Assembly: GCA_951406725.2 (NCBI GenBank)
Contig: OX597821.1
Location: 103,974,001 to 104,038,000 of the forward strand
DNA length: 64,000 nt
Origin: Octopus vulgaris
Lineage: Eukaryota
Reading direction: 5' to 3'
Shown: piece after piece, positions 834 through 57,345 of the stretch
Layout of the letters: each line of letters begins with the position of its first letter
Numbering within the stretch: position 1 is the stretch's first letter
Notes under the pieces: model-generated
Seen by the model: only the letters and a program-made list of their open reading frames with translations
What the model was told of the DNA's origin: nothing
Database searches by the model: none
Translations under genes and position numbers: made by a program

Positions 834-1475
834 GTGGACGCCCGGGAGGAGGTTTTGAATGAGAAACCTGCCCGGGAAGTGAACCCAGGTGCAAGTTCTC
901 CAACCGGCAGCAAGGGCCATGGAGACGCAGAACCCGGTGAAGAGGTAGAGGGAGGAAGAAGAACTAAAAGAAGGACTGGAAGAGCTAAAGGAAAAGAAAA
1001 AGCTCAAGCAGGACCAAAGAGTGAAACAACCAGAAATAGAAGTGGAACCGCAAAGGATGGAACCAAACAGCGCACACGGGTGTGTATGTTCTACCTGAGA
1101 GGTTCCTGCTGGCATGGAAAGGAAGGTGCAGGCTGCCGCTTTGCACATCGGGGACCCTGCCACAGAGACACGAGGCAGATGGACAAACCATCAACACAAA
1201 GAAAAGGGATGGACCACGCACCACCTGCCCCAAAGCGGAGGTACGCAGATGTTGTGCGCGCCACAAACAGCCAACATGATGTTGTCGAAAGAGCAGCTGC
1301 TGAGCAACAATCTTTTTTGTGCATGGCACAAAAGATTGTACAGCAGCTGACCTGGCTTCATCAAACCCAAGCCCGCAGGTGGGACTACCCACTATATACC
1401 AGACCACCACAGCAAACAGACACAGGATGGACACCGCCGGCAACAACGTACACCTCACCTCGATACTCCTACTGA
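834..1475 (+). CDS. LINE ORF1 (probably N-terminally truncated), basic region plus CCCH zinc finger
   Basis: CMFYLRGSCWHGKEGAGCRFAH = C-x7-C-x8-C-x3-H after a Lys/Arg-rich stretch; overlaps the ORF2 frame. Confidence 0.75.
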   Translation: MDAREEVLNEKPAREVNPGASSPTGSKGHGDAEPGEEVEGGRRTKRRTGRAKGKEKAQAGPKSETTRNRSGTAKDGTKQRTRVCMFYLRGSCWHGKEGAGCRFAHRGPCHRDTRQMDKPSTQRKGMDHAPPAPKRRYADVVRATNSQHDVVERAAAEQQSFLCMAQKIVQQLTWLHQTQARRWDYPLYTRPPQQTDTGWTPPATTYTSPRYSY

Positions 1476-4423
1476 ACATCAGAGGACTGCAAACACTCAG
1501 TAACAGGACAAAGATCCCGTTCCTGAGAGACTTTGTTGCATGCAATCAAGCCATATGCATAGCACTTACAGAAACGCACCTGAAACCGGACATAGCAGAT
1601 GCGGAGTTACACATACCACAGTATGCTGTACTACGGACCGACAGGAAAGAAAGGAGTCATGGAGGTGTTGCTATGTACATCCGTGAGGACCTCACACCCC
1701 AGGTCCTCTTGTCATACTCAAACTCGGTGTGTGACACACTAATTGTACATATTAGGCAACTTGATGTAGTTGTGTGTGCTACATATCGCCCTCCAGATGC
1801 CCCAAGCCATGTGGGCAAGTTTGAAGACTGCCTTATAAAAATAGAAGAAATTCTAACCACTTTAGAACAACACATAGGTGTGCTTCTTATGGGAGACTTC
1901 AATCTGCCCAATGTCAGATGGCCCGAGGGCCTTTCTCTCCCAGGAATGACAAGATGTGAACGAGGACAGGCGAGGTCCCTCCTGAACCTCATCAACACCC
2001 TGTACATGGAGCAGGTAATACTCCAACCAACCAGGGCAGGTAACACACTGGATCTCTGCTTCACAAATGACATGGATCTCATCCATAATGTGAAAGTGAC
2101 ACCGACACTACTCTCGGATCACAACATGATAGAGCTGACCATGTACGGGCCAAAAGAGAGCACGGACATGCAGCCTACAAGAAACCCTCAAAATCTTTCC
2201 AGCTTGAACTACCATAAGGCAAACTGGAAACAAATTGAGAAAGAGATCCTCAAACAAAACTGGCCTAAATGTCTCTCCTCGCCAGACATCGACGTGAAAC
2301 TTTAACAATTCATGTCTGTAATGCAAGCCATATGCTACAAATGTGTCCCAGAGAGAAAGGCCACTGTACACAAGAACAAAATCCCCAGAGAGAGGAACAT
2401 TTTAATGAGACGGCGTACGAAATTTTCAAATCGCCTAAACAAACAGATTGAAAGCAGTGAAAAGTCCCGCCTAAAAATAAAACTGTTGGAAATCGAAAAA
2501 TGTCTGCAACTCTCCCATGAAAAAGAAAGAGCAGACAAAGAAGCCTGGGCTATAGAAAACATAAAATCTAACCCCAGAGCTTTCTACAGGTATGCCAAAG
2601 AAACAGCTACAGTGCACTGTAGAATAGGGCCACTCCTCGAAAAGGATGGCACACTTACAGGAAAACCAATGAGGGTAAGTGAAATACTGAATGAGCAATT
2701 CAAGAGTGTTTTCACTCCACCCCTTGGGCATCTCCAAATCACCAATCCAACTGACTTTTTTACCACTGCAGATATAAAATCAGAGGCGGCGACGATAGAT
2801 TACATCGATATAAAGGAAGACGATGTAACCAAGGCTATAGATGAAATGAAAACAGACTCAGCTACTGGCCCCGATGGATTCCCGGCAATCCTCCTAAAAG
2901 CATGTAAGAGAGTCCTAGCAAGACCACTGCAGTTCCTCTTTCAGAGCTTCCTTGCAGCTGGCAAACTTCCAGGAAAACTGAAGGAAGGTAAAATATGCCC
3001 CATTCATAAAGGATGTAGCAGAGCGGAAGCCAAGAACTATAGACCTATCTCTCTGACCTCACACATCAGCAAGGTCATGGAACGAATAGTCAGAAGGAAG
3101 CTGATCACCTTCCTTGAAGAGAATGACTTGCTGCCTGACACCCAACATGGTTTCCGACCAGGGAGAAGCTGTTTAACTCAGCTCCTACAACACTATGACT
3201 GGGTGCTGAAACGGCTGCTCAACCACTCAAATGTGGAACTGATATATCTCGACTTTGCAAAGGCCTTTTATAAAGTCGATCATGGAATGATATGTCACAA
3301 ACTACGTGATCTCAACATAGTTGGAAAACTGGGAGAATGGCTTCATGACTTTCTGAAGGATAGAAGTCAGGTGGTAGTAGCCAATGGGGCCACCTCCATT
3401 AACACACAAATAGTGAGCGGTGTTCCGCAGGGCACTGTTCTGGGACCACTACTGTTCATAATGGCCCTCTCAGACATGCCCTCAGCCACGCAGAGAGCCA
3501 CGATCACAAGTTATGCAGATGATACAAAAGTTTCACAGGCAATACAGAACCCTGAGGACACTAAACACCTGCAATGTGAGCTGGACGAAATATACAAGTG
3601 GGCTGAAAAGAATAGCATGCAGTTCAATGCTGGAAAGTTTCAAGCTTTATACTATCAGCATGCAAAACTGAATGCAATACCCAATGAATACACTGGACCC
3701 GGAGGGATTGCAATCCCAGAGGCACAATCAGTGCGTGACCTGGGTATTCACATGAGTGATGACGCGACCTTTCATGTACATGTTGCTAAACTGACAATGA
3801 AATGTAGACGGCTGGCTGGATGGATTCTTAGAACCTTTAGAACAAGAGAACAAGAAACCATGATGGTCCTCTGGAAGACACTTGTTCTAAGCCACTTTGA
3901 CTATTGCTCTCAGCTATGGTCACCATCCAGTGTCAAGTTGATCACAGAACTTGAGGCGATCCAACGAAGCTACACAAAGAAGATAGCCTCTATGCAGAAT
4001 GTAAGCTACTGGGAAAGACTCAAGAGATTAAAATTATATTCCCTGGAGCGTAGGCGGGAAAGATATGCCATAATATACATCTGGAAGATCCTGGAGGGAA
4101 GTGTCCTGAACTTTGGCATCGAGAGTTACGCAAATGCCAGAACTGGGCGCCACTGCGTGGTGCCTAGGACTCCAAACCTGCCATCAAGATGTAGGACAAG
4201 ATTCTGTGATAGCCTGGGCTTCCGAGGCCCACAGCTCTTCAATATCCTCCCGAAGAACCTGAGAGACCTGCATGGGGTGGATACAGATGTCTTTAAAATG
4301 AAGCTGGATCTCTTCCTGTCAGGTGTCCCAGATGAACCAACTTCACGGCAGGAGGGGCAGATGAGGGCAGCTGCATCGAACTCTCTCATGCACCAAATAG
4401 CAGTTGCTAGAAAGCCTCCATGA
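1427..4423 (+). pseudogene. LINE ORF2 (APE endonuclease + reverse transcriptase) broken by one in-frame stop
   Basis: ORFs 1319-2305 and 2312-4423 share a frame, separated by TAA at 2303-2305. APE motifs NIRGL, LTETHL, YRPP, GDFNLP, LDL, SDHN; RT motifs NYRPISL, QHGFR, GVPQGTVLGP, YADD (3512-3523). KAFD reads KAFY (TAT 3269-3271). Confidence 0.92.
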
Positions 4424-5729: not shown

Positions 5730-8330
5730 CATTCATCTTCTATCAACCAACCTATGGTTGATCGGAACTCCATTGACGATCCCTTTCCACACTACACGGT
5801 CCTACATTACTTTGTTCAGATCTCTAATATCCAGTCCTGAGTTCCGAGATATAGTATCTGGAAATGTCAGTTTTCTGGAGCAAACACTTCCAGTGGGATG
5901 CCATAGGAACATGGATGGGATAACCTCTTTCTCTGTTCGATGACAGAAGCCAGCAAATTGTAGCCGTTTCTGCTTTAGCTTGAGGAATATTGGTATCAGA
6001 TTTCTGTAGATGTTACTAAGTGTTGAGTGTGATCTTCAACTGATGTTCTGTATCTTTCTGAGCAGGTTGGTATATGTCCCATCTAGTTGTTTTTCTAAGA
6101 GAGCCGATAAGGTCCAGGTCCCTCATCCATAGAGAAGGACCGGCTCAGTCAGTGTTCTAAATATTTTAACTTTTAATTGGGATAAAAGGTTTGAGTACCA
6201 GATCTTATCAAGTCTGTTATATCCATGCCAAACAAGAGCTTTGTGGACGCGAAAGTCCTTTTGGGAGTCTATTATGTGTGACCCAAGATATTTGAAGTCA
6301 ACGTTTTTGGTTGATATATTATTCAGCGATTTAAGTTCAGTTAACTTGGAGGAGGCTGTGATACACGCTGTCGTACTCTCTTGTTGCAGTAAAGGCTGAC
6401 CTGGTTTGCCACTTTCTCCAGTGCTTGTAACAAAGATTCTGCATCTTTAATACAATGGGATATCAAGGCAAGATTGTGAGCAAAGTCAAACCAGTTAAAT
6501 ATTGTGCACAATGCCAACTGCTCTGGTGGGGTTTAAAAAGGCGTCCCTCTCCCTCCATGCCATCTAGGGAAATGCGTAGAACGTAGTCGAGAACAATGAT
6601 GGACAAAAGGGGTGTTCTGCAGGGTGGGTGTGTCACCCTGCAGAACACTTGCTTCAACTTCAAAGAAATCAGTCTCTCCATCAGGCGATATAACATTGTG
6701 GCAGTAGTGTTTGTGTGCAGTACTCTGATAGCATAAAAAATCCTCGGAGGAATACTATTGAGTGCAAGTATTTTAAATGTAAGATCTCTGCTGATGGTAT
6801 CAAATGCCATGCGAATGTCGACAAAACCGATTATGACGCTCTTGTTAAACATTTTTCATTTCTTCCAGTATGCGACAGGTGGATAGGATTTGAGCAGTTG
6901 TTGACCGACCCATTCTAAATTCATTCTGATTCTTACGAAGAAGTGTATCGAGCATAGGTGCAATGCTATTAAGCAGAAGTTCGTTATAAACCTTTGCTGC
7001 AATCGGGATCAGTATAATGCCTCTGTAATTTACTGCACTTGTTAGATCACCTTTTTGGGGGTGGGGACAGGGACAATTCCCCGCTTCAACCAAGCTGATG
7101 AAGGTGAATGATGTGCACATGTGTCATTGCAGAAACGTAGTAAGGTTTCATGAAATATTGGATCTTTCCACAGTAATGTTGGTATGTAATCTAGTCCTGG
7201 TGCTTTATTGCTAGCAAAACTACCGAGAGCAACTTTGAGCTGAGCTCATCCAACGTGGAAAGGTCCCTGTTGATATCTAATACATTAGATATTTGGCGTA
7301 GAGGAAGTGGGCAACCGCTAGTTGGTGGTGGTTCTGCAAGAAGTTTCTGAAAGCGGTCAAACCAGTTGGCTTTGCACTTCTCAGAGGAACCAACTTTAAG
7401 ACTGATGGAGTGCTTAAATATTTTTCCAGTTAGTGTGTTTATTATTTTCCATACAACAGCATATTCCTTTGCAGTATGCAAATTTGCAATTTTGTCAATC
7501 TCAGCGAGAATGTAATCCGTTTTTATATTGGCACATGCCTCGTCTAGTGTCCCTTAATTTTTAAAAGCATCTTTGAATTTATTTTTATTAGGCCTCTGTT
7601 CATTTTTAAAGTTCGATCTTTCTAGATGCTTTCTTGCTTCTCTCACACGGATATCTGCATGAATTGATATGTGCGATATTCTTTCCTTCTTTGCTCGTTT
7701 TGAAAGGGTAATTTCTTCTGTGGCTGTTACGAAGTTATTATATTGTGTTTCAACGTCGTCATTGTGCTCTGACGGTTTTTAAAGTCTACTGCAAATGAGT
7801 GTACTAAGTCTTTATCTGATGATACCGTGGACCAGTCCACTTATTTCATGGGGTTTGGGACTGGTGGTTTTGATGATCTAAGACTGAGAACAGTGCATAT
7901 GGAAATAACTCTATGGTCAGAGCCAATAGATGCGCAGGAGGAGTATGCCTGTGCATTTCGGATATTGTTCTTCTACTTGTTTCCTCTAGTGAATTTGTGA
8001 ATAAGATCCAGATTGGCGCTGAAATATCCACAACCGCTTTGGGCATTTCAGGAACTTTATGTTTGCAATCTGAAGTAGAAACTTGTGAAGAAAATCAATC
8101 AGTTTTATCCCGTTCCGGTTAGTCTCCTTGTTATAGGTGAACAGAGCATCATCCCTCCCTATTTGGCCATTAAAATCACCTGCTATAAAAAGGACGTTGT
8201 GGTAAGGGACACGTTCCTTTGCTCCCTTCAGATCGCAGTAGACGTCGTCTGCAAGTTTCTCACCACTTGTGTTAAATGGGCAATATTCGCAAAGAATGTT
8301 GTTTGAGGGTTACTAAAATTATGCGGTCAG
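5730..8330 (-). mobile_element. Decayed RTE-clade LINE (APE and RT fragments, many frameshifts)
   Basis: Minus-strand fragments VPYHNVLFIAGDFNGQI (~8160-8210), NYRGIILIPIAAKVYN...LRKNQNEFRMGRSTTAQIL, FVDIRMAFDTI, and C-terminal RLQFAGFCHR...DRVVWKGIV. Ends approximate. Confidence 0.85.
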
Positions 8331-8838
8331 ATATGAATTTGTAATATTTTCACGTATTTCAGTACTCAACGACATGATGCGTTATAATATAGTCTCTAGA
8401 GTTTAACACTGAAAGTAGACACAGCATAAAACCGGGTGAAACTATATTAGGTAGGTTTGACAATTAGCGGTATAACTGTCACATTTGTAATAATGGCTTC
8501 TATCAGTAAATTTAAATAAATTTCACTGCAATTTCTAGTATACAGACGAAACATGAACTGGCACCTTGTTTTGTATATACGTACTCGCCTCTATTAGGGG
8601 CCAATTTTAAACTGATCAAGGAACAAGAAGACATTTTGTCATTATTATTCCCAAAAAGCAATGGGGGTATGATGGCAAGGAATATATGAAGGGGACATAA
8701 TCTTCTGTAAATACTTTCTTACTACGAACTGATTTTCTCACATTTGCGAATTCCACTTCCAGAATATTCTAGCTAATCACCAACTCCTACTGTCGACGAA
8801 TGACTTATACATACATACATACATACATACAAATATAC

Positions 8839-9195: not shown

Positions 9196-9350
9196 TATAT
9201 ATATATATTTATATATATATATATATATCACAATCAAGGAACGGCCATAATAGGCCATTCACCCACTAGAAATAACAGCCAAAAGCTTTAACCGCAAAAT
9301 AACGTTAATTCCGTAAACCAGGAGAAAATTGAAAAACATTTACCCTGTAA

Positions 9351-9554
9351 TTTCTTAGACGATGCACCGTTTTATCCTCTGTTTAATGGAAAACTAACCT
9401 GATTAAATTAAATCAAGCCAATCTACCATAGGCCCTTAGATTCATCAGTAAGAAATAACGATGCACCGTTTCATCTTCTGTTTAATGGAAAACTAACCTG
9501 ATTAAATTAAATCAAGCCAATCTACCATAGGCCCTTAGATTCATCAGTAAGAAA
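9351..9554 (-). ncRNA. Tandem pair (99-bp period) of type I hammerhead ribozyme motifs
   Basis: Minus strand: TTTCTTA-CTGATGA-ATCT...AGAT-GAAA-CGGTGCATCG-TTA, then TTTCTTA-CTGATGA-ATCT...GGAT-AAAA-CGGTGCATCG-TC-TAAGAAA. 7-bp helix I, 4-bp helix II, near-palindromic helix III. Confidence 0.75.
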
Positions 9555-9610
9555 GCCAAACCGGAACAAATATTTTTCACGAGGCATTCTCATTGCTATC
9601 ATTGTAGATG

Positions 9611-9648
<38 letters not shown>

Positions 9649-10717
9649 GCACACACACACACACACATCCACATATATAAGCATTTTCTGGTTTATGCAT
9701 TTCGCAATTGAAGATATTTGGTCAATGGTTTCAATAGATGCACCTCTTTAAATCTCACCGAATGTACCACACTTACCAACACATGTAGTTATGTGAAAGT
9801 ATAGTGAAAAGAGAAATAAATGCAATTCTCACAGCTGCATAATATATATTGTGGTATAATGTCTTTGGAAATTTAGATAATACTAGCACTGCCGGTTTTT
9901 AGAGAAATGTTTCGATTTGAATTACACAGTTTATCACTGGAATTCTAAAGGTTAACGTCATGCAGCGAGCTTAAACGATAGTAACTTCAATTGGTAGAGT
10001 ACATTTCTTATCACAGAGCTTTGTAAATATTTCTACAATTCGTTACAATGTCCACTAAAATTATCACACGTAATTCTAAGTGATAACACCATGGTTAGAA
10101 AGGAAAGATGTACTGGATTTTGGAAAATGAATAATTCTTGATTCTTTTCAATAGGTTTAACTTACTTGTATTTAATCAGATACGAGAAGAGGTTAATGAC
10201 TTTTCCAAATAGTTTGTCATTGATGGCCGTTTTTATTATTGTTGCTGTTTAGTAGAGTGAGTAGGTGTGTTATCATGAGCATTCATTCCGTCAGATTAGA
10301 AACCATATAATACCTCGGCGTTTCCTTCCTTTTCGTAAGATATTCGGATATTATTTGAGGAAAATCTATTTGCTATTTCTTATAGATATAGCAACCACAT
10401 AGTTGCTTCACTCAATTCCAGGAAGTGAGGTGAATTGAGTGAAGCAGTTATTGGAAAGAAAAAAAAGGAAAAAAGAGCGTTTCTCGGTATTATTTTATGC
10501 GCTGTTTTGTTTCTGGATCTGTAGATGATTTGGTTCATGGTGTTTCACCTTAAATGTTTCACCTACATGCCATATGAAAATTTTATAAATAATATCAATA
10601 ATTAAACATACATACATACATACATACATACATACATACATACATACATACATACATACATACATACATACATACTCACATACACACACACACACACACA
10701 TACACACACACACACAC

Positions 10718-12300
10718 AAATATATGTTCAAATGTTCTTCCTTCTCTGGTCAAATCTATAAGCAGTCAGTGGTATTGCTATGGGCACCAGGATGGCCCCC
10801 AATTATGGCAACCCCTTTGTAAATTATGTAAACGAGCAAATCTTTGCTCACTTGTCTGGACCCATCCCAGAACATTATGGTCGTTACATTGACGACTGCA
10901 TTGGCACTACAAGCCTTCACGGACAACAGCTCAACGATTTTATTTCTTTCGTTAACACCTTTCACCCAACATTGGAATCTACCTACATCATATCTGATAT
11001 TTCTCTTTGCTTTCTGGACTCTCCGTCAAAATACACAATACACACTTCTCCACCACTGTCTACTATAAACTTTCAGACTCCAGCTCCTACCTTTACTACT
11101 CGTCCTTTCACCGCAAACACATACAATTTTTGTATACCTTTCTCTCAATTTATTCGCCTTCGATGACTTTGCAGCATCGATTCGGAGTTCGAATTCCATA
11201 GTAAAATGAAGCGACATTTTTTTCTATATCGAGAGTATCCTCCATCAGTTGTCGACCCGCCACTCCACCAAGCCCCAGGCATCAACCGCACCGCAGCTCT
11301 GCTACCATCTTCACGAACTTCCACCAACTGTATTCCACTCTCTCTCACCCACCAACCTTCTAAATCACAAACTCACCCACAACTTTCGTTTCCTTCTTTC
11401 TGACCCAACAACCGTCCCTATCTTTCCCACACCGCATCTTCTGTCTTTTAAAACTGATAGGAGTCTTAGAAATCTCCTTGTCAGAAGGTTACCAGTTCCC
11501 AGCTCTGCACAACCAGGAACTTATAAATGTTCTCGCCGGCAATGTAACACATGTCCCTACATCAACAATATTACCACGATCACGGGGCCCAAGAAGACAA
11601 TAACTCATAACACACCACTTCTGTTACACTGTTCCGAATCTCATATATTGCATCATATGCAAAATCTGCAGTGCTCTTTATATTGGACAAACAGGGCGAC
11701 GCCTTGTGGATCGCTTTCGCGAACTCATTAGTAGCATAATGCTACGTATGCCAGGCCAACCCTTCTCCACGCACTTCAACAGTGTGAATCATTCTATAGC
11801 AGCTTTATCATTGAGTGAGATGGCCTTGCACCACGGAACCCCCTTCTGTAGAAAACGAAAGGAGCAAAGTCTCATATTTGATCTTGGTTCTATGCCCTGA
11901 CAGGTACAAATGAACGTTTTTCCTTTCACCTCCTCTTAGTTATTTCTACCTTTGAAGTCCTCCTTCCACACTCTCTCTGCAACATTCCCGTATTTACTTA
12001 CCTCTATTCTCTCCATCACACCTTTCCTCCTCCTTTCGGCTCGCACTCTCGTATAACTTCTGTTTCATATTAGCAGCCCCTGTTATTCTGCGTCCATTAT
12101 CAGTTTCAGTCAGTTTTTCAAGCTAAGAGGATGTAAACTCTGATTTTCTTCTCTTTGTCTTCTCTCTTTCTCTAACCCCTGACGAAGGGGATAGATTATA
12201 ATTATTAACCAACTTGTCATCTTCTATTGAAAGAACTGAACAGTTGTATAGATGTATACACAATTTTGTCTTCTTTCTTTCTTCCTTCTTTCTTTCCTTC
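10718..12300 (+). mobile_element. Decayed Penelope-like element (RT C-half, thumb, GIY-YIG, 3' pLTR-like region)
   Basis: AMGTRMAPNYGN, YGRYIDDCIG, IPFSQFIRLR, linker CSRRQCNTCP, IYCIICKIC..LYIGQTGRRL.DRFRE, HFN, EQSLIFDLGS across shifted frames. Confidence 0.9.
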
Positions 12301-14308: not shown

Positions 14309-15240
14309 TATTAATATATAATCATAATTAGCTAGTAAATGGTGATTTTTTTTAATGAGTTGAATTAAGAAAATGATGGACATAATATCTACTAACTGTG
14401 GAAAAAAACTATATTAATTTAGCACATATCTCAGGAGTCAATAAGATATATTAAGAAGTAATGCAAGGGAGGTAATCATGATGAACCAAATAATTTTCCT
14501 GGATATGTAGAATTTTCTTGTAATTATTTCATATTGATATATCTCTATTTCTATTAATACAGAATCATAATTAGCTAGTAAATGGTGATTTGTTTTATTA
14601 ATGAGTCGAATTAAAACAATACGTTAGACATAATATTTACTACCTGTGGAGAAAATCTTTATCAATTTAGTAAATATATCAGGAGTCAAAAGGATATATT
14701 AAAAACTAATGGAAGGGAGGTAATCAAGATGAACCAACTAATTTCCCTAGATATATAGAATTTTCTTGTAATTATTTCATATTAATATATCTCTTTTTCT
14801 ATTAATACAGAATCATAATTAGCTTGTAAATGGTGATTTGTTTTATTGATGAGTCGAATTAAAACAATATGTTAGACATAATATTTACTACCTGTGGAGA
14901 AAAACTTTATCAAATTAGTAAATATATCAGGAGTGAAAAAGATATATTTTTTCCACAGTTAGTATATATTATGTCCATTATTTTCTTTTAATTCAGCTCA
15001 TTAAAAAAATCACCATTTACTAGCTAATTATGATTATATATTAATAAAAATTGATATATATATATATACATTTATATAAATATGAAATGATTTCTATATT
15101 TTTTATCCCAATATAAGTAACTAATATTTATTGAACTTCTTTAGGAAATTGTCTACAGAATATTTACTTCGATTTCTTAATATGGAATCTGGATGTCAAA
15201 TGGTAAGGGTCATTAAAACATCTAGAGCACTAGCAGTCTA
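14085..15240. repeat. Large fold-back: ~300-bp inverted arms around ~2.5 tandem units of ~245 bp
   Basis: 14085-~14410 is an imperfect reverse complement of ~14945-15240; ATCATAATTAGCT.GTAAATGGTGATTT starts at 14321, 14564 and 14812. Confidence 0.85.
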
Positions 15241-17990: not shown

Positions 17991-19428
17991 GATGAATGAA
18001 ACCACATGAAACAGAAACAAAAGAACTTTTGTTGAAAACTTCTGGTTACTAATTACTAATGATATAACAAAATAATGGGATAAAAAATGTAACTGTTGAC
18101 TAAGTGACGTTACTAGTGAGAGCTTAGTGGACATGAATTTAAAAGCTAAGTCATCCGAACAATATGTACAGCAGTTCAAACGCAATAAGCTGTCGACCCC
18201 TCAGATGGGAAAATATCCAATATGAGGTCGTCCCTGGGATGACCAAAATGAGAATAGATTCAGTTGGAAATTTCGAGATCTGTACCAAAATTGATAAGTA
18301 ACTGAAGAAGACCAAAGTGTACAACAGCTGCTATGTTGTGACTATAATTATTGTGAATATATTACTATGAAATTATAAAAATCTCATCGTAATTATTGAT
18401 ACATAATACACAAATATGCACACTCTCTCACTCACACACACACATGCGTATTTACATTATATACATAGTATATACTTAATAGTTACGTTACATTGATGCA
18501 ACGTTTTCAATGAGTGAACGGAGATGCTAGGCTTTTGTAGACACACTATGAAATTCTTTCTCAGTAATTTCCTCCGTCTAAAATTATAGATGTCCGTAGT
18601 CATATTTGACGATAATTTTATTTTGATCTTTCATTTTCAGATAACTACGTTCCTAATTACTACGTGTCGTTCAATTTGTACAAGTCCGTTATCTTTTATT
18701 TATTGTAAATGCATATATATTATATCCATTATACACACACACATGCGCATATTCATACATATATTTCATTATACAAACTATTTTCACACTATCATTTTCA
18801 CTACGCCTGTACAGAAAATATTTATCCTTTACCCAATTGATAAATAAAGATTCATGCTTACATCAATGGTCATTAATATAGATTTATATTTTCCATTAAC
18901 CATACGATGTTTGCCAAGTTATTTCGCATTTATTTCTAGTAGTGTATACACTTGAAATGTCTAGTCTTAATGTTCTTTTTCATCATAGCCTGAAGGTCGG
19001 CAACGAGGAACTCAGACCAAAAATTATTAACAGTACAGTAAATTCTCTGTCTATATATCTACATTTTAAGTGCTTAGATATTTAGATTTTGGGCAAAATT
19101 AACCATTATCAGGACAAGCATAATAGCAACAACTAGAGAATACATATAATAATGTTTCATATTACAGTAATATTTTGGACACCAAAATTCATTCAAATAT
19201 AGAATTACTGTTTGTAGAGATATATCCGAATATTGGTGGTTTATCTGGAATTTGTCTAGGAATCATTTGAATGTTATCTGATCTTTTCTTTCGCTAATGA
19301 GCCTTGACAAGATGTTAAAGGAAGCAGAGCTAGTTGAAGTGAAGTAGTTTTGTCTTAGGGTTGTGATGTGGTGCGAGCGGACGGCACAATAAACTAGACT
19401 TGAATGTATTTTAAATTTGATACCTATA

Positions 19429-24960: not shown

Positions 24961-26961
24961 CCTACACTGCCTAGACAGGAAAGTTACGTCTGACAATCAA
25001 ACCAGCCGCATATAAGGACATACAACAGACGAACTATGTGGCAACACAATCAATAAATTCCTAACTAATTATGAATTAAGTAATTATCAAAGCAGTTTAC
25101 GAAATGTCCTGGTTGGCGATACAATCGTTCTTCTGTCAATGCAAGAAATATAACCTAAAAATCTCACTCTTTTTTCTGCCACAATTTCCTATCTTGCTGC
25201 TCGTATTCACAATTTTCAGAACATCAGCGCTTCCGATTCTGACGCTGTAGGTGATATCGAGTTTTCTGCATAGACGCCGTTAGTGGAATGCAACCACTAC
25301 AGAAATTACAACAACAAAAAACAAAATATATCATTTGAGGAGTAAGTGAAGATCGTGAGGGTTTTAGTCACGTTTCGTTTGTTATGTTATTAATTCTTTC
25401 TTGCAGATGCGATTTCATACTATAAAACATTCCAGATATGAATGGAATAATAATAGGAGGTGAAATAAGGCGATCCAGTATGTTGAAATCAGATGTTTTG
25501 TCCTTTCTCTATTGTTTTTTTTTTTTTTATCTTTTACCTGATTGGTAAAAGAATTTAGTCTAAAATCCAAGCCTACCCCATCTCAGTACATATTTTTATA
25601 AAAATCTGGTGCTCATTCTATCGATCCACTTTAAGGGGACAGAAGCAAAGCAATAGTCTTTGTCAAGCGATATGAAAGGCATAAACAAACACAAATCGCA
25701 TATACCCATATATACATACGCAGAAACACACACACACAAACGCACACTCATACAGGACACGCATAACACACAACACATATGCATACACAAAAATATACAT
25801 ATATATAACGGACTGAATTCCTTTACAAGGCATTTTTTGGCTATATTAAAAGACACTCAACGATTGTCTCGAGAAGTGGGACCGAACTCTGAACCGTATC
25901 GTTGCAAAGCCACTTTCATAACCATACAACTATGTTTATGGAAATAATTGTGTCCAACAAAATGTGTTGATATATTTTTACGACCATCCGAAATCTTCGT
26001 CATTAAGACTATGCGCTGTTGTGAAAGCAACTAAGTCGTATATTTAAGAAGGACGGGGCTTGTCAATACTCAAGTTTTTTTAAGAAAGATTAAAGTAGCA
26101 AAAACGGATTAGAAATTTCTGTAAATCCGCAATCACAGCGTAGATTTCAATGTCAGTCAGTCACTTTCAACAGCTCCCCTTTGATGTTACTGCTGTTACT
26201 ATTGTTATTTAATCCCAGGTCAGACCTGATTGAGGAGATCTGTAATCATAAGTTTTCAAGCCGTAATCATTTTCTCTTCGCCTAACACCTAATAAAAACT
26301 TGTGTGAATAATTCTCCTCCCTCATCAAATAAAATAAATTGTGATTTGAGAGAAATACGACTGCTATTTCTTGTATATTACAACACCACGATTAGGCTCC
26401 ACAAATAGCAGATATGTATTTATGTTGTTGCTAATCCACCCTTAACATCATACATAGCTATTCTATAACATTCTATAGCATTCTTATTTTACTAGTCAAG
26501 TCCAATAATTTTTTTCAATATATTCCATTTCGTGTTTTCCCTCTCATCAACCCTGCTATCATATACATTAGCTTCATTTAAAGATCTTACATACATGATC
26601 CTTCCTTTGTTTTATTATGACAATGGATAATATACTAGCTACCATTATGCAGTTATTTTACGCTAATAAACCCCAGAGGATATTTCATAAGAGCTTTCTA
26701 GTTGAAGAATCTAAGATCTTAGAAATTTAATCGTTTTTTTTTTCCCTATTAGGATAATGTATGGAATCCGTATTTCTCTTATGCGATTACTTTACAGCAG
26801 TTAATCCCATCGGAATTTTAATAACAAATTCTCGTTGAATAAAGTAACAATTTACTTCTATTATGTATAATTATCTCCTTCCAGCCTCCCGATGTATCCA
26901 TATCCTTATTGTCTAACACCTCACACACCACACCATATCTATCCATCTATCTATCTATCTA

Positions 26962-45513: not shown

Positions 45514-45514
<1 letters not shown>

Positions 45515-45864
45515 TTTATTTTAAGCAGCAGAAAATTCAACAAAATCTGTTACTCTGAGTTTCTCGTTGCCGTTCATCAGACATATTTTTGACCTTTTTG
45601 TTTATCGCTCGAAGATTGACCGTTTTTTCTAAAGGGCCAATCAAACAAGTCCATTTCTTTTTAAAGGTGTAGCGTTTGTAAGAGTATAGATTGAATTAAT
45701 ATATATGTTCCATTCTAGCAAAAACTGTCTGATGAACGGCAACGAGAAACTCAGAGTAACAGATTTTGTTGAATTTTCTGCTGCTTAAAATAAAGCATAT
45801 TACTCTACCACTGGTATTTGAGTACTCTTTTTTCCACCTTGTTTCACATTTATGTGTTTACTCC

Positions 45865-45866
<2 letters not shown>
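45514..45866. mobile_element. Fold-back element with a hammerhead motif in each arm and a one-sided 71-bp tail
   Basis: Arms ~45514-45590 / ~45720-45795; CTGT-CTGATGA-A-CG GCAA CG-A-GAAA-CTCAGAG-TA-ACAG at 45725-45762. Confidence 0.8.
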
Positions 45867-45932
<66 letters not shown>

Positions 45933-52116: not shown

Positions 52117-52154
<38 letters not shown>

Positions 52155-52397
52155 GGTAGAATCTTCTAATTCTTATGCTTTCCAAAACTTGATTTCGAAA
52201 CGTACGTCCGTAGGTAACTTAAAATTGTATGATAGATTGCCGTCATTTCATTCTTTCTTACCTGTCTGTGTTTGCCTTTCAAGAGCTGTGTTTTTACTGA
52301 GATCTCCTTTTAGTAGAAGGAATAGCTATATATATTTGACTGCTATTTCTAAATTCGGTGTGCGGTGAGGCAATTCGTTGCTAAACCCTTAATTGCT

Positions 52398-52470
<73 letters not shown>

Positions 52471-53909: not shown

Positions 53910-53911
<2 letters not shown>

Positions 53912-54086
53912 GGAGTAAACACATAAATGTGAAACAAGGTGGAAAAAGAGTACTCAAATACCAGTGGTAGAGTAATATGCTTTATTTTAAGCAGCAGAAA
54001 ATTCAACAAAATCTGTTACTCTGAGTTTCTCGTTGCCGAGAAACTCAGAGTAACATTTGGTTGAATTTTCTGCTGCTTAAAATAAA

Positions 54087-54087
<1 letters not shown>
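53910..54087 (-). mobile_element. Second copy of the 45514-45866 element, folded back inside the hammerhead
   Basis: 53910-54038 is the near-exact reverse complement of ~45737-45866; arms 53980-54032 / 54037-54087; (TA)n on both sides. Confidence 0.88.
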
Positions 54088-54145
<58 letters not shown>

Positions 54146-57004: not shown

Positions 57005-57345
57005 GGCATAGTCGTTATGAGCGCGGCTACTAACCCCAAGATTTCAATTTCGATTCCAAGCAGGGACCTCAACAATAATAGTAATTATAACATTGAAAAT
57101 CACTTTAGGAATGAGAACCTATTTTCGAAAGTTGTCCAAGACACCTGATGAAGGCTGGAGGGTAAATGAGCCAAAGAAGATGAGGAAAAATATCCATCAA
57201 ATGTATATTACTTTTCATTAAACACAACCGTCTCGTATGTATATACGAGTATGTATTTTCCAAAGTGTCGTCCCTGTCTTGAAACGGTGTGACTTGAGTG
57301 AGAATTTCTTGGGTATTTCCAGCATATCGAAGAACCCGTTAGGGG
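57005..57345 (+). mobile_element. Degenerate tRNA-headed element containing a partial hammerhead motif
   Basis: GCATAGTCGTTATGAGCGCGGCTACTAACCCCAAG..TTTCGATTCC head; CTGATGA-A-GGCT..AGCC at 57145-57172 with the GAAA box missing. 3' end uncertain. Confidence 0.4.

Follow-up and report, generated by a model that had tools for sequence, protein, structure and literature searches.

A tandem pair of hammerhead ribozyme copies lies on the minus strand of the window, by which we mean the whole 64-kb stretch of DNA analysed here. A repeat search on this strand resolved two 97-nt copies with a period of 99 nt, which are 98% identical and differ at 2 positions (9373 and 9377). They are part of a repeat element with the following features.

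9228..9611, minus: whole repeat element, 384 nt with the duplication and about 285 nt without it, 36% GC
9210-9227 and 9612-9637: (TA)n tracts that bracket the element and set its probable outer limits
9555..9611, minus: upstream flank, without the 2 nt that family copies carry beside helix I
9458..9554, minus: copy 1, which supplies the catalytic core of the composite site and terminates at U16.1
9554-9548, minus: helix I 5' strand of copy 1, UUUCUUA
9547-9541, minus: CUGAUGA of copy 1
9540-9537/9476-9473, minus: helix II of copy 1
9528-9485, minus: loop-II hairpin of copy 1
9472-9469, minus: GAAA of copy 1
9469-9458, minus: palindromic helix III segment of copy 1
9456..9457, minus: 2-nt spacer UA, identical to the 2 nt preceding helix I in family copies
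9359..9455, minus: copy 2, with the layout of copy 1 shifted by 99; it gives the helix III 3' strand and U16.1 (9359)
9448-9442, minus: CUGAUGA of copy 2, also intact
9351..9358, minus: cleavage strand, with C17 at 9358, the predicted scissile bond at 9358/9357 and the helix I 3' strand UAAGAAA at 9357-9351
9228..9350, minus: downstream part, with high depth of family contigs at 9236-9350 and a small hairpin near 9260-9240 at its end

The minus-strand letters confirm the defects that a first-pass annotation had assigned to the two copies. Copy 1 has intact CUGAUGA and GAAA motifs, ends at U16.1 and has no helix I 3' strand. In copy 2, a G12A substitution at 9373 changes GAAA to AAAA, and GUC and the 7-nt UAAGAAA strand are kept. 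The second difference from copy 1 is an A-to-G change at 9377 in helix II, where the pair is U-A in copy 1 and U.G in copy 2. Neither copy alone has every core element of a type I hammerhead. A composite type I site is complete, with C3-U4-G5-A6-N7-G8-A9 and G12-A13-A14-A15.1 from copy 1 and U16.1-C17 from copy 2, and three helices of 7, 4 and 12 bp can surround this core. The helix I 3' strand forms 7 of 7 Watson-Crick pairs with the 5' strand of either copy (8 with that of copy 2). The reciprocal second site is incomplete, carrying G12A and having no helix I 3' strand.

Helix II comprises 4 bp and opens with an A10.1-U11.1 pair. The helix III segment (ACGGUGCAUCGU) is near-palindromic as previously described, with 6 of 6 positions self-complementary when G.U is counted; it is not minimal, and 4 bp with a UGCA tetraloop could close locally. 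Loop II (about 60 nt) consists of an 8x8 internal loop and a 44-nt hairpin (9429-9386 in copy 2), and no recognisable motif for a loop I-loop II contact was seen in it by eye. A distal extension of helix I is possible with the family flanks and impossible for copy 1; judging from the letters of loose contig ends, 9347-9345 could extend helix I with the family upstream flank after a 3-nt bulge. When G12 was relaxed to a purine, a type I descriptor matched once in the real window and in 0 of 200 random windows, which were order-2 Markov windows of 64 kb. In Rfam, nothing in the window reached the gathering score, and the 23 matches at E<=10 within 9200-9700 include no hammerhead family, presumably because loop II is long.

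The minimum free energy (MFE) structure of 9351-9554 is the composite, in which helix I forms between copy 1 and the terminal strand, helix II within copy 1 and helix III between the copies, leaving the core and C17 unpaired. Its fold z-score is -5.19 with 0 of 200 shuffles equally stable, a value inflated by the duplication. Structures were sampled for nine flank choices at 25 and 37 °C (1000 structures each). The 12-bp inter-copy helix III appeared in 806-903 of 1000 sampled structures, and the complete composite site in 0-323 of 1000, depending on the flanks: about 300 in the absence of flanks, 75-180 when both are present, 9-16 for 9240-9605, and 0-2 with the upstream flank but a short downstream partner. 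In the folding, part of the upstream flank 9555-9611 pairs with the downstream flank, closing helix I, and part competes with the core if the downstream flank is absent. An alternative AAUCUA/UAGAUU stem, which had been raised as a possible dominant fold, was rejected as such; it occurred in at most 2 of 5000 and in 0-1 of 1000 samples (at most 0.1% of sampled structures), its 3' strand being held in the loop-II hairpin, which formed in 900-967 of 1000 samples.

Constrained energies place the composite 0-1.1 kcal/mol over the MFE in three of four contexts and 4.5-4.7 kcal/mol over it in the fourth. The own hammerhead of copy 2 costs 10-15 kcal/mol within the dimer, where it was found in 0 of 1000 samples. 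For a single unit, the hammerhead fold lies 5.0-5.7 kcal/mol above the MFE, and core UGAUG pairs with CAUCG of helix III in the predicted fold; even with family letters, a single unit reached its own hammerhead fold in only 0-5 of 1000 samples. By these computations, the composite fold would be favoured and the monomer fold disfavoured. Since the energy models disregard Mg2+ and tertiary contacts and the folding was made without a known-active ribozyme as a control, the dependence on a dimer is a prediction.

The element belongs to a repeat family that is abundant in public contigs. A query with 9236-9605 (370 nt) listed 24 public runs under three organism codes and one metagenome, 20 with part of the query (a share of 0.07 in X20, of 0.00 in X21-X24) and none with at least half of its 31 words; all of these data are contigs. 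Family contigs from 4 of the 24 listed runs (X1, X2, X13 and X4) were aligned to 9236-9490 (255 of the 370 nt). They number 1933, 5518, 29 and 55, respectively, in many variants, indicating a very high-copy repeat, although contig depth is not copy number. The contigs span all of 9236-9457, and their loose ends resemble 9555-9584 of the window. At 9451-9457, each of the 6 loose-end rows listed (27 contigs, 4 runs) runs on into the upstream flank; in 3 runs, the alignment of 22 contigs extends to 9457 and gives way there to the upstream flank. Pieces such as records 19-20 of X2 and record 25 of X4 lead from loop II past GAAA and the cleavage site to the downstream flank. The listed family units are single and complete. 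Within the 64-kb window, no second copy of the family was found. Pattern scans for the family gave 0 matches in viral contigs and 1 in metagenome contigs; the latter was discarded as a chance match of 20 nt within a bacterial gene for EF-G, for which BLAST found nothing similar in the window.

Position 9373 is G12 in 42706/42706, 367043/370690, 34.8/34.8 and 178/178 of the family depth (99-100% in 4 of 4 runs). Since the family keeps G12 and its units are single with the upstream flank, the defect of copy 2 appears to be a local mutation and that of copy 1 a truncation. G12A slows hammerhead cleavage from >500-fold to ~10^6-fold, as reported in PMC2553840, so copy 2 alone is expected to be effectively dead. 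C at 9377 makes up 62% of the depth in X2 and is therefore not private to the locus. At 9390, both window copies carry the minority letter, the other letter holding 88-96% of the family depth; since the copies share such family-minority letters, they seem to derive from one local source. Position 17 is A in 57-92% of the family depth in the four runs, versus C17 at the locus. A17 also gives a cleavable triplet by the NUH rule.

The tandem is known from the assembly alone. The same duplication, which the first-pass annotation proposed to look for in other copies, was not recovered: of 7583 pieces, 32 are listed, and not one of these spans 9457/9458. Depth beyond this junction is absent in X13 and X4, and in X1 and X2 it may come from single units that fit copy 1 better. 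We weighed whether the duplication or the G12A letter could be an artefact of assembling or polishing a high-copy repeat. X1, the top holder of the family, has no contig with the window letter at 9373 in the filtered 80% of the run and no listed piece that spans the junction, as an artefact would have it. However, contigs drop rare variants, the junction offers no overlap for a graph assembler to loop on, the spacer is real family flank and the stretch has no N; we regard an artefact as improbable.

The idea that the two defects complement each other fared unevenly. The strand topology and the 9358/9357 bond stood up in the MFE structure and the energies, whereas a designed or conserved complementing unit did not, given the intact G12 and the single units of the family. 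In its strongest form, the idea makes the pair a natural double hammerhead with a single site, in which complementation is obligatory and which selection has maintained for some function of the host or of the element. Such selection would be in keeping with the favoured composite fold and with the place of G12A, which hit the core not required by the composite site, but it would rest on one locus with two substitutions and no gene context, in a family whose contigs carry G12A in at most 1% of the depth, if at all, and are single units where listed. We consider selection of the pair highly improbable. Since G12A and the duplication look particular to the locus, complementation appears incidental, and since the composite site would predate G12A, nothing would have needed complementing.

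The family itself carries signs of a dimer mechanism. Positions 9364 and 9365 change jointly, with the same depth and contig count in X1 and in X13, and the change is seen in 4 of 4 runs; it converts the loop UGCA to UAUA and keeps the palindrome. Since both bases pair only in the inter-copy helix III, this change, a single event, speaks for a dimer mechanism in the family. Loose ends in X1 point to a subfamily with mutually complementary helix I strands ACUUUA/UAAAGU, unlike those of the window, and C at 11.1; the two strands sit on different contigs (3 and 2), so their linkage is presumed. In the loop-II hairpin, the pair 9425-9390 is mostly A.A or U-A in the family, and pairing is kept in 4 of 5 variant cases. 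Since 23 of 38 transitions would keep pairing regardless, these variants do no better than chance and the hairpin gives no sign of conservation. Judged by its sequence, the family appears to carry a genuine type I hammerhead of the dimer type, whose loop II holds a long hairpin.

Family contigs of X4 on 9254-9399 show dense T-to-C (12 places) or A-to-G changes. These fit A-to-I hyper-editing of family transcripts in both orientations, where X4 being RNA is a guess. Such editing would also strike core adenosines.

We consider it most probable (roughly 0.68 for the whole explanation) that the locus is an old copy of a ~285-nt high-copy, non-coding repeat that underwent a local duplication and a later G12A change and thereby holds an incidental composite site. 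As part of this joint explanation, complementation would be a side effect of the duplication of a ribozyme of the dimer type, and nothing points to selection or to a role for the host. The element would most likely be a solo pLTR or a non-autonomous derivative of a Penelope-like element (PLE). A piece of 97 nt, from helix I through U16.1, would have been duplicated locally and inserted two bases upstream of its source, and G12A would have arisen in copy 2 after the duplication. In a minus-strand transcript, the two palindromic helix III segments would zip into a 12-bp duplex, freeing the CUGAUGA of copy 1 from the self-pairing that blocks a single unit. The copy 1 core would then act on the GUC of copy 2, giving one cut at 9358/9357, with the reciprocal site dead.

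The order of events and the local origin of the duplication are drawn from the letters of the copies and of the family. The spacer matches the 2 nt before helix I in family copies and is thus the upstream flank of copy 2. Since the spacer equals family flank and copy 1 lacks those 2 nt, a single local insertion is the simplest event. Templated DNA repair could insert such a local copy. A plain 99-nt tandem duplication would have retained the 2 flank bases that copy 1 lacks, which counts against local duplication in this plain form.

These missing flank bases also bear on another origin, in which self-cleaved RNA left the duplicated piece behind as a fossil. In this scenario, reverse transcriptase (RT) would have initiated at the 3' end of the 5' cleavage product, or switched to it, with N17 lost. 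Insertion of this sequence at a nick immediately upstream of a copy already present would then have produced a partial tandem of the Penelope type. Copy 1 indeed starts at the first base of helix I and ends one base before the scissile bond, and the junction between the copies shows no microhomology. Of the ~142 possible 3' endpoints that would leave the core intact, only 3 fall within 1 nt of the bond (2%), but given that the locus was selected for a missing helix I 3' strand, the chance is about 3/19 (16%), and DNA hairpins formed by the palindrome and the helix I arms could fix the same breakpoint. Partial tandems are described as typical of PLEs in 10.1101/2021.04.23.441226, and PMC11167929 proposes nicks within the AT-rich pLTR of the element itself. 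On the other hand, in PMC11167929 the template in vitro was mostly uncleaved RNA, and RNA-seq showed no ends at the cleavage position. In the present data, no loose end falls at 9357-9360 among 23 listed of 98 rows, and the shared minority letters favour a local DNA template. We consider a fossil of cleaved RNA unlikely.

A broader version joins this origin to a property of the family: the family would be dimer-gated, a solo copy being locked by CUGAUG/helix III pairing and switched on by a nearby second palindrome, and the locus would record RT copying of a self-cleaved RNA end. We hold this combination to be quite unlikely. If true, it would be genomic evidence for in vivo cutting by Penelope-type hammerheads and for cut RNA as a template, the latter in contrast with the one in vitro system described in PMC11167929.

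As to catalysis, a single composite cut site at 9358/9357 is plausible from the modelled fold. Detectable cleavage in vitro at high Mg2+ has about even odds by our estimate, and meaningful activity in vivo has lower odds than that. Any real activity of the composite is probably weak, and it may be slow because the distal helix I extension of the family flanks is absent. A reading that is compatible with our preferred explanation on the origin of the locus, but differs from it on activity, is that the locus is catalytically silent, either with no minus-strand transcription or with a composite that folds yet cuts negligibly. The A10.1-U11.1 pair, the 4-bp helix II, the 8x8 internal loop and the missing distal helix I would then leave no loop I-loop II contact. 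PLE hammerheads are reported to be low in activity even as dimers and trimers (PMC4209133), and tertiary contacts to be worth up to ~1000-fold (PMC2553840). The composite fold is lost depending on the flanks, and Pfam finds no host gene in 240 frames, both of which fit silence. Against it, the composite has all the invariant core bases and lies at or near the MFE; family sequence also occurs in hyper-edited contigs of a run guessed to be RNA, which says nothing on the locus itself. The chance that the locus is silent seems to us only a little short of even.

Dimeric activation through a palindromic helix III, which the first-pass annotation had cited for newt satellite 2, the avocado viroid ASBVd and Penelope motifs, is well established in the literature for newt and axolotl repeats, ASBVd and Penelope motifs (PMC4209133, PMC7229834, PMC6466107). 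As in newt and axolotl satellite 2 and in ASBVd, where the monomer is weak, head-to-tail motifs merge a palindromic helix III and each core cuts the other copy, according to these sources. Helix III has 1-2 bp there versus 4 bp and a tetraloop here. The present case differs further in that monomer failure is predicted from mispairing between the core and helix III, one of two sites is complete, the spacing is 99 nt and the tandem is apparently one-off. Double-hammerhead self-cleavage was reportedly described by Forster et al. in 1988 in the context of newt satellite 2 and ASBVd. One-site dimers have been engineered in the viroid literature by mutating one GAAAC.

The metazoan PLE pLTR hammerheads, as characterized by Cervera and de la Pena in 2014 (PMC4209133), resemble the family in being type I, with a palindromic loop 3, an AT-rich insertion context, very high copy number, mostly single motifs and several covarying subfamilies; their dimers and trimers cleave weakly in vitro. 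In contrast to those described there, the present copies have no extra base between A9 and 10.1, an A10.1-U11.1 instead of a G-C pair, a helix I of 7-8 bp, a helix II of 4-5 bp, a ~60-nt loop II and a real helix III, and no RT/GIY-YIG ORF is linked to the family here. PLEs are described with microsatellite targets and partial tandems (10.1101/2021.04.23.441226), and the locus has two such pLTR traits, insertion between (TA)n tracts and a partial tandem, the origin of the tandem being uncertain. The family is probably Penelope-derived, with no ORF linked to it in the present data.

Animal non-LTR retrozymes, as outlined in PMC7229834 and bioRxiv 10.64898/2026.07.22.740005, are similar in that the unit is non-coding, 150-450 bp long (about 285 here), below 50% in GC and strongly self-paired when folded, carries a type I hammerhead and occurs alongside PLEs; solo monomers are described for them as well. 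The bioRxiv text derives solo retrozyme monomers from pLTRs and asks of a retrozyme at least 2 consecutive units, each with a complete hammerhead. At the locus neither unit is complete, and the tandem unit is a 99-nt internal piece. Since each unit holds an incomplete ribozyme, the locus cannot release a monomer or a circle. In the literature searched, where older and subscription papers are thinly covered and supplements excluded, we found no account of the family or of a natural complementing hammerhead pair; the supplementary alignments of PMC4209133 could include the family. The sole cephalopod mention found was of 235 hammerhead matches in the giant squid (PMC6962438).

The locus thus looks like a known dimer mechanism with one live site in an accidental local arrangement. 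As a natural one-site double hammerhead, it offers an inexpensive in vitro test of inter-copy catalysis. The family is more useful than the locus: it is abundant, is missed by Rfam, and combines a type I hammerhead and a long hairpin in loop II with covariation in helix I and loop 3. According to 10.1101/2021.04.23.441226, it is unclear what hammerheads do in endonuclease-bearing Penelope elements. If copy ends pile up genome-wide at the scissile bond, this role becomes testable from sequence alone; if they do not, the repeat is an ordinary decayed one.

The window is eukaryotic in character, with many microsatellites and abundant remnants of retroelements. A Pfam scan of 240 frames (15 + 106 + 119) gave only retroelement domains and two weak matches below the cutoff, without any host gene, and no RT/GIY-YIG ORF linked to the element was found in the flanking frames 9660-10580 or in the Pfam scan. 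A broken Penelope-like element lies at 10762-12200 on the plus strand, 1.2 kb from the element, with RT-like frames, a CxxC linker, a weak GIY-YIG match (E 0.006, below the cutoff) and a truncated hammerhead 5' half at 12179. This remnant is on the other strand from the element, and the two have no BLAST match. Look-alikes at 18780-18990, 45720-45880 and 52150-52400 have 47% mean column identity when aligned, and no homology is claimed for them. On the plus strand, 1319-4423 holds a nearly intact LINE endonuclease and RT frame with one stop near 2303, the best named relative of its RT being from Argonauta hians (58% identity) and another relative reaching 88%. The Argonauta relative makes an octopod cephalopod the likely host. 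A second, decayed LINE on the minus strand at 6100-8310 retains RT fragments (Pfam RVT_1, E 0.0003 at 6848-7123).

A second, minimal hammerhead family is seen at 45514-45900 and 53910-54092, with CUGAUGA at 45729 (plus) and 45580 (minus), GAAA, the palindromic CUCAGAG and UA. It forms inverted partial copies between (TA)n tracts, whose pieces are 97-99% identical, an arrangement typical of Penelope pLTR insertions. The CUGAUGA motifs at 57145 and 60955, both on the plus strand, look like decayed Penelope-type hammerheads, and the latter sits in a perfect 72-nt inverted repeat (60844-60915/61135-61206). A 15-nt motif is common to 9266-9280 (minus), 52338-52352 (plus), 26359-26373 (plus) and 8524-8538 (plus), giving 4 matches versus 0.41 expected, although the pattern was drawn from two of them. 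It lies near the 3' end of the element and of a (TA)n-flanked short repeat at 52155-52390, which has a GAAA-palindrome-UC stretch. A tandem repeat with a 243-nt period and an adjoining inverted copy at 14329-15067 is another partial-tandem/inverted structure in the window.
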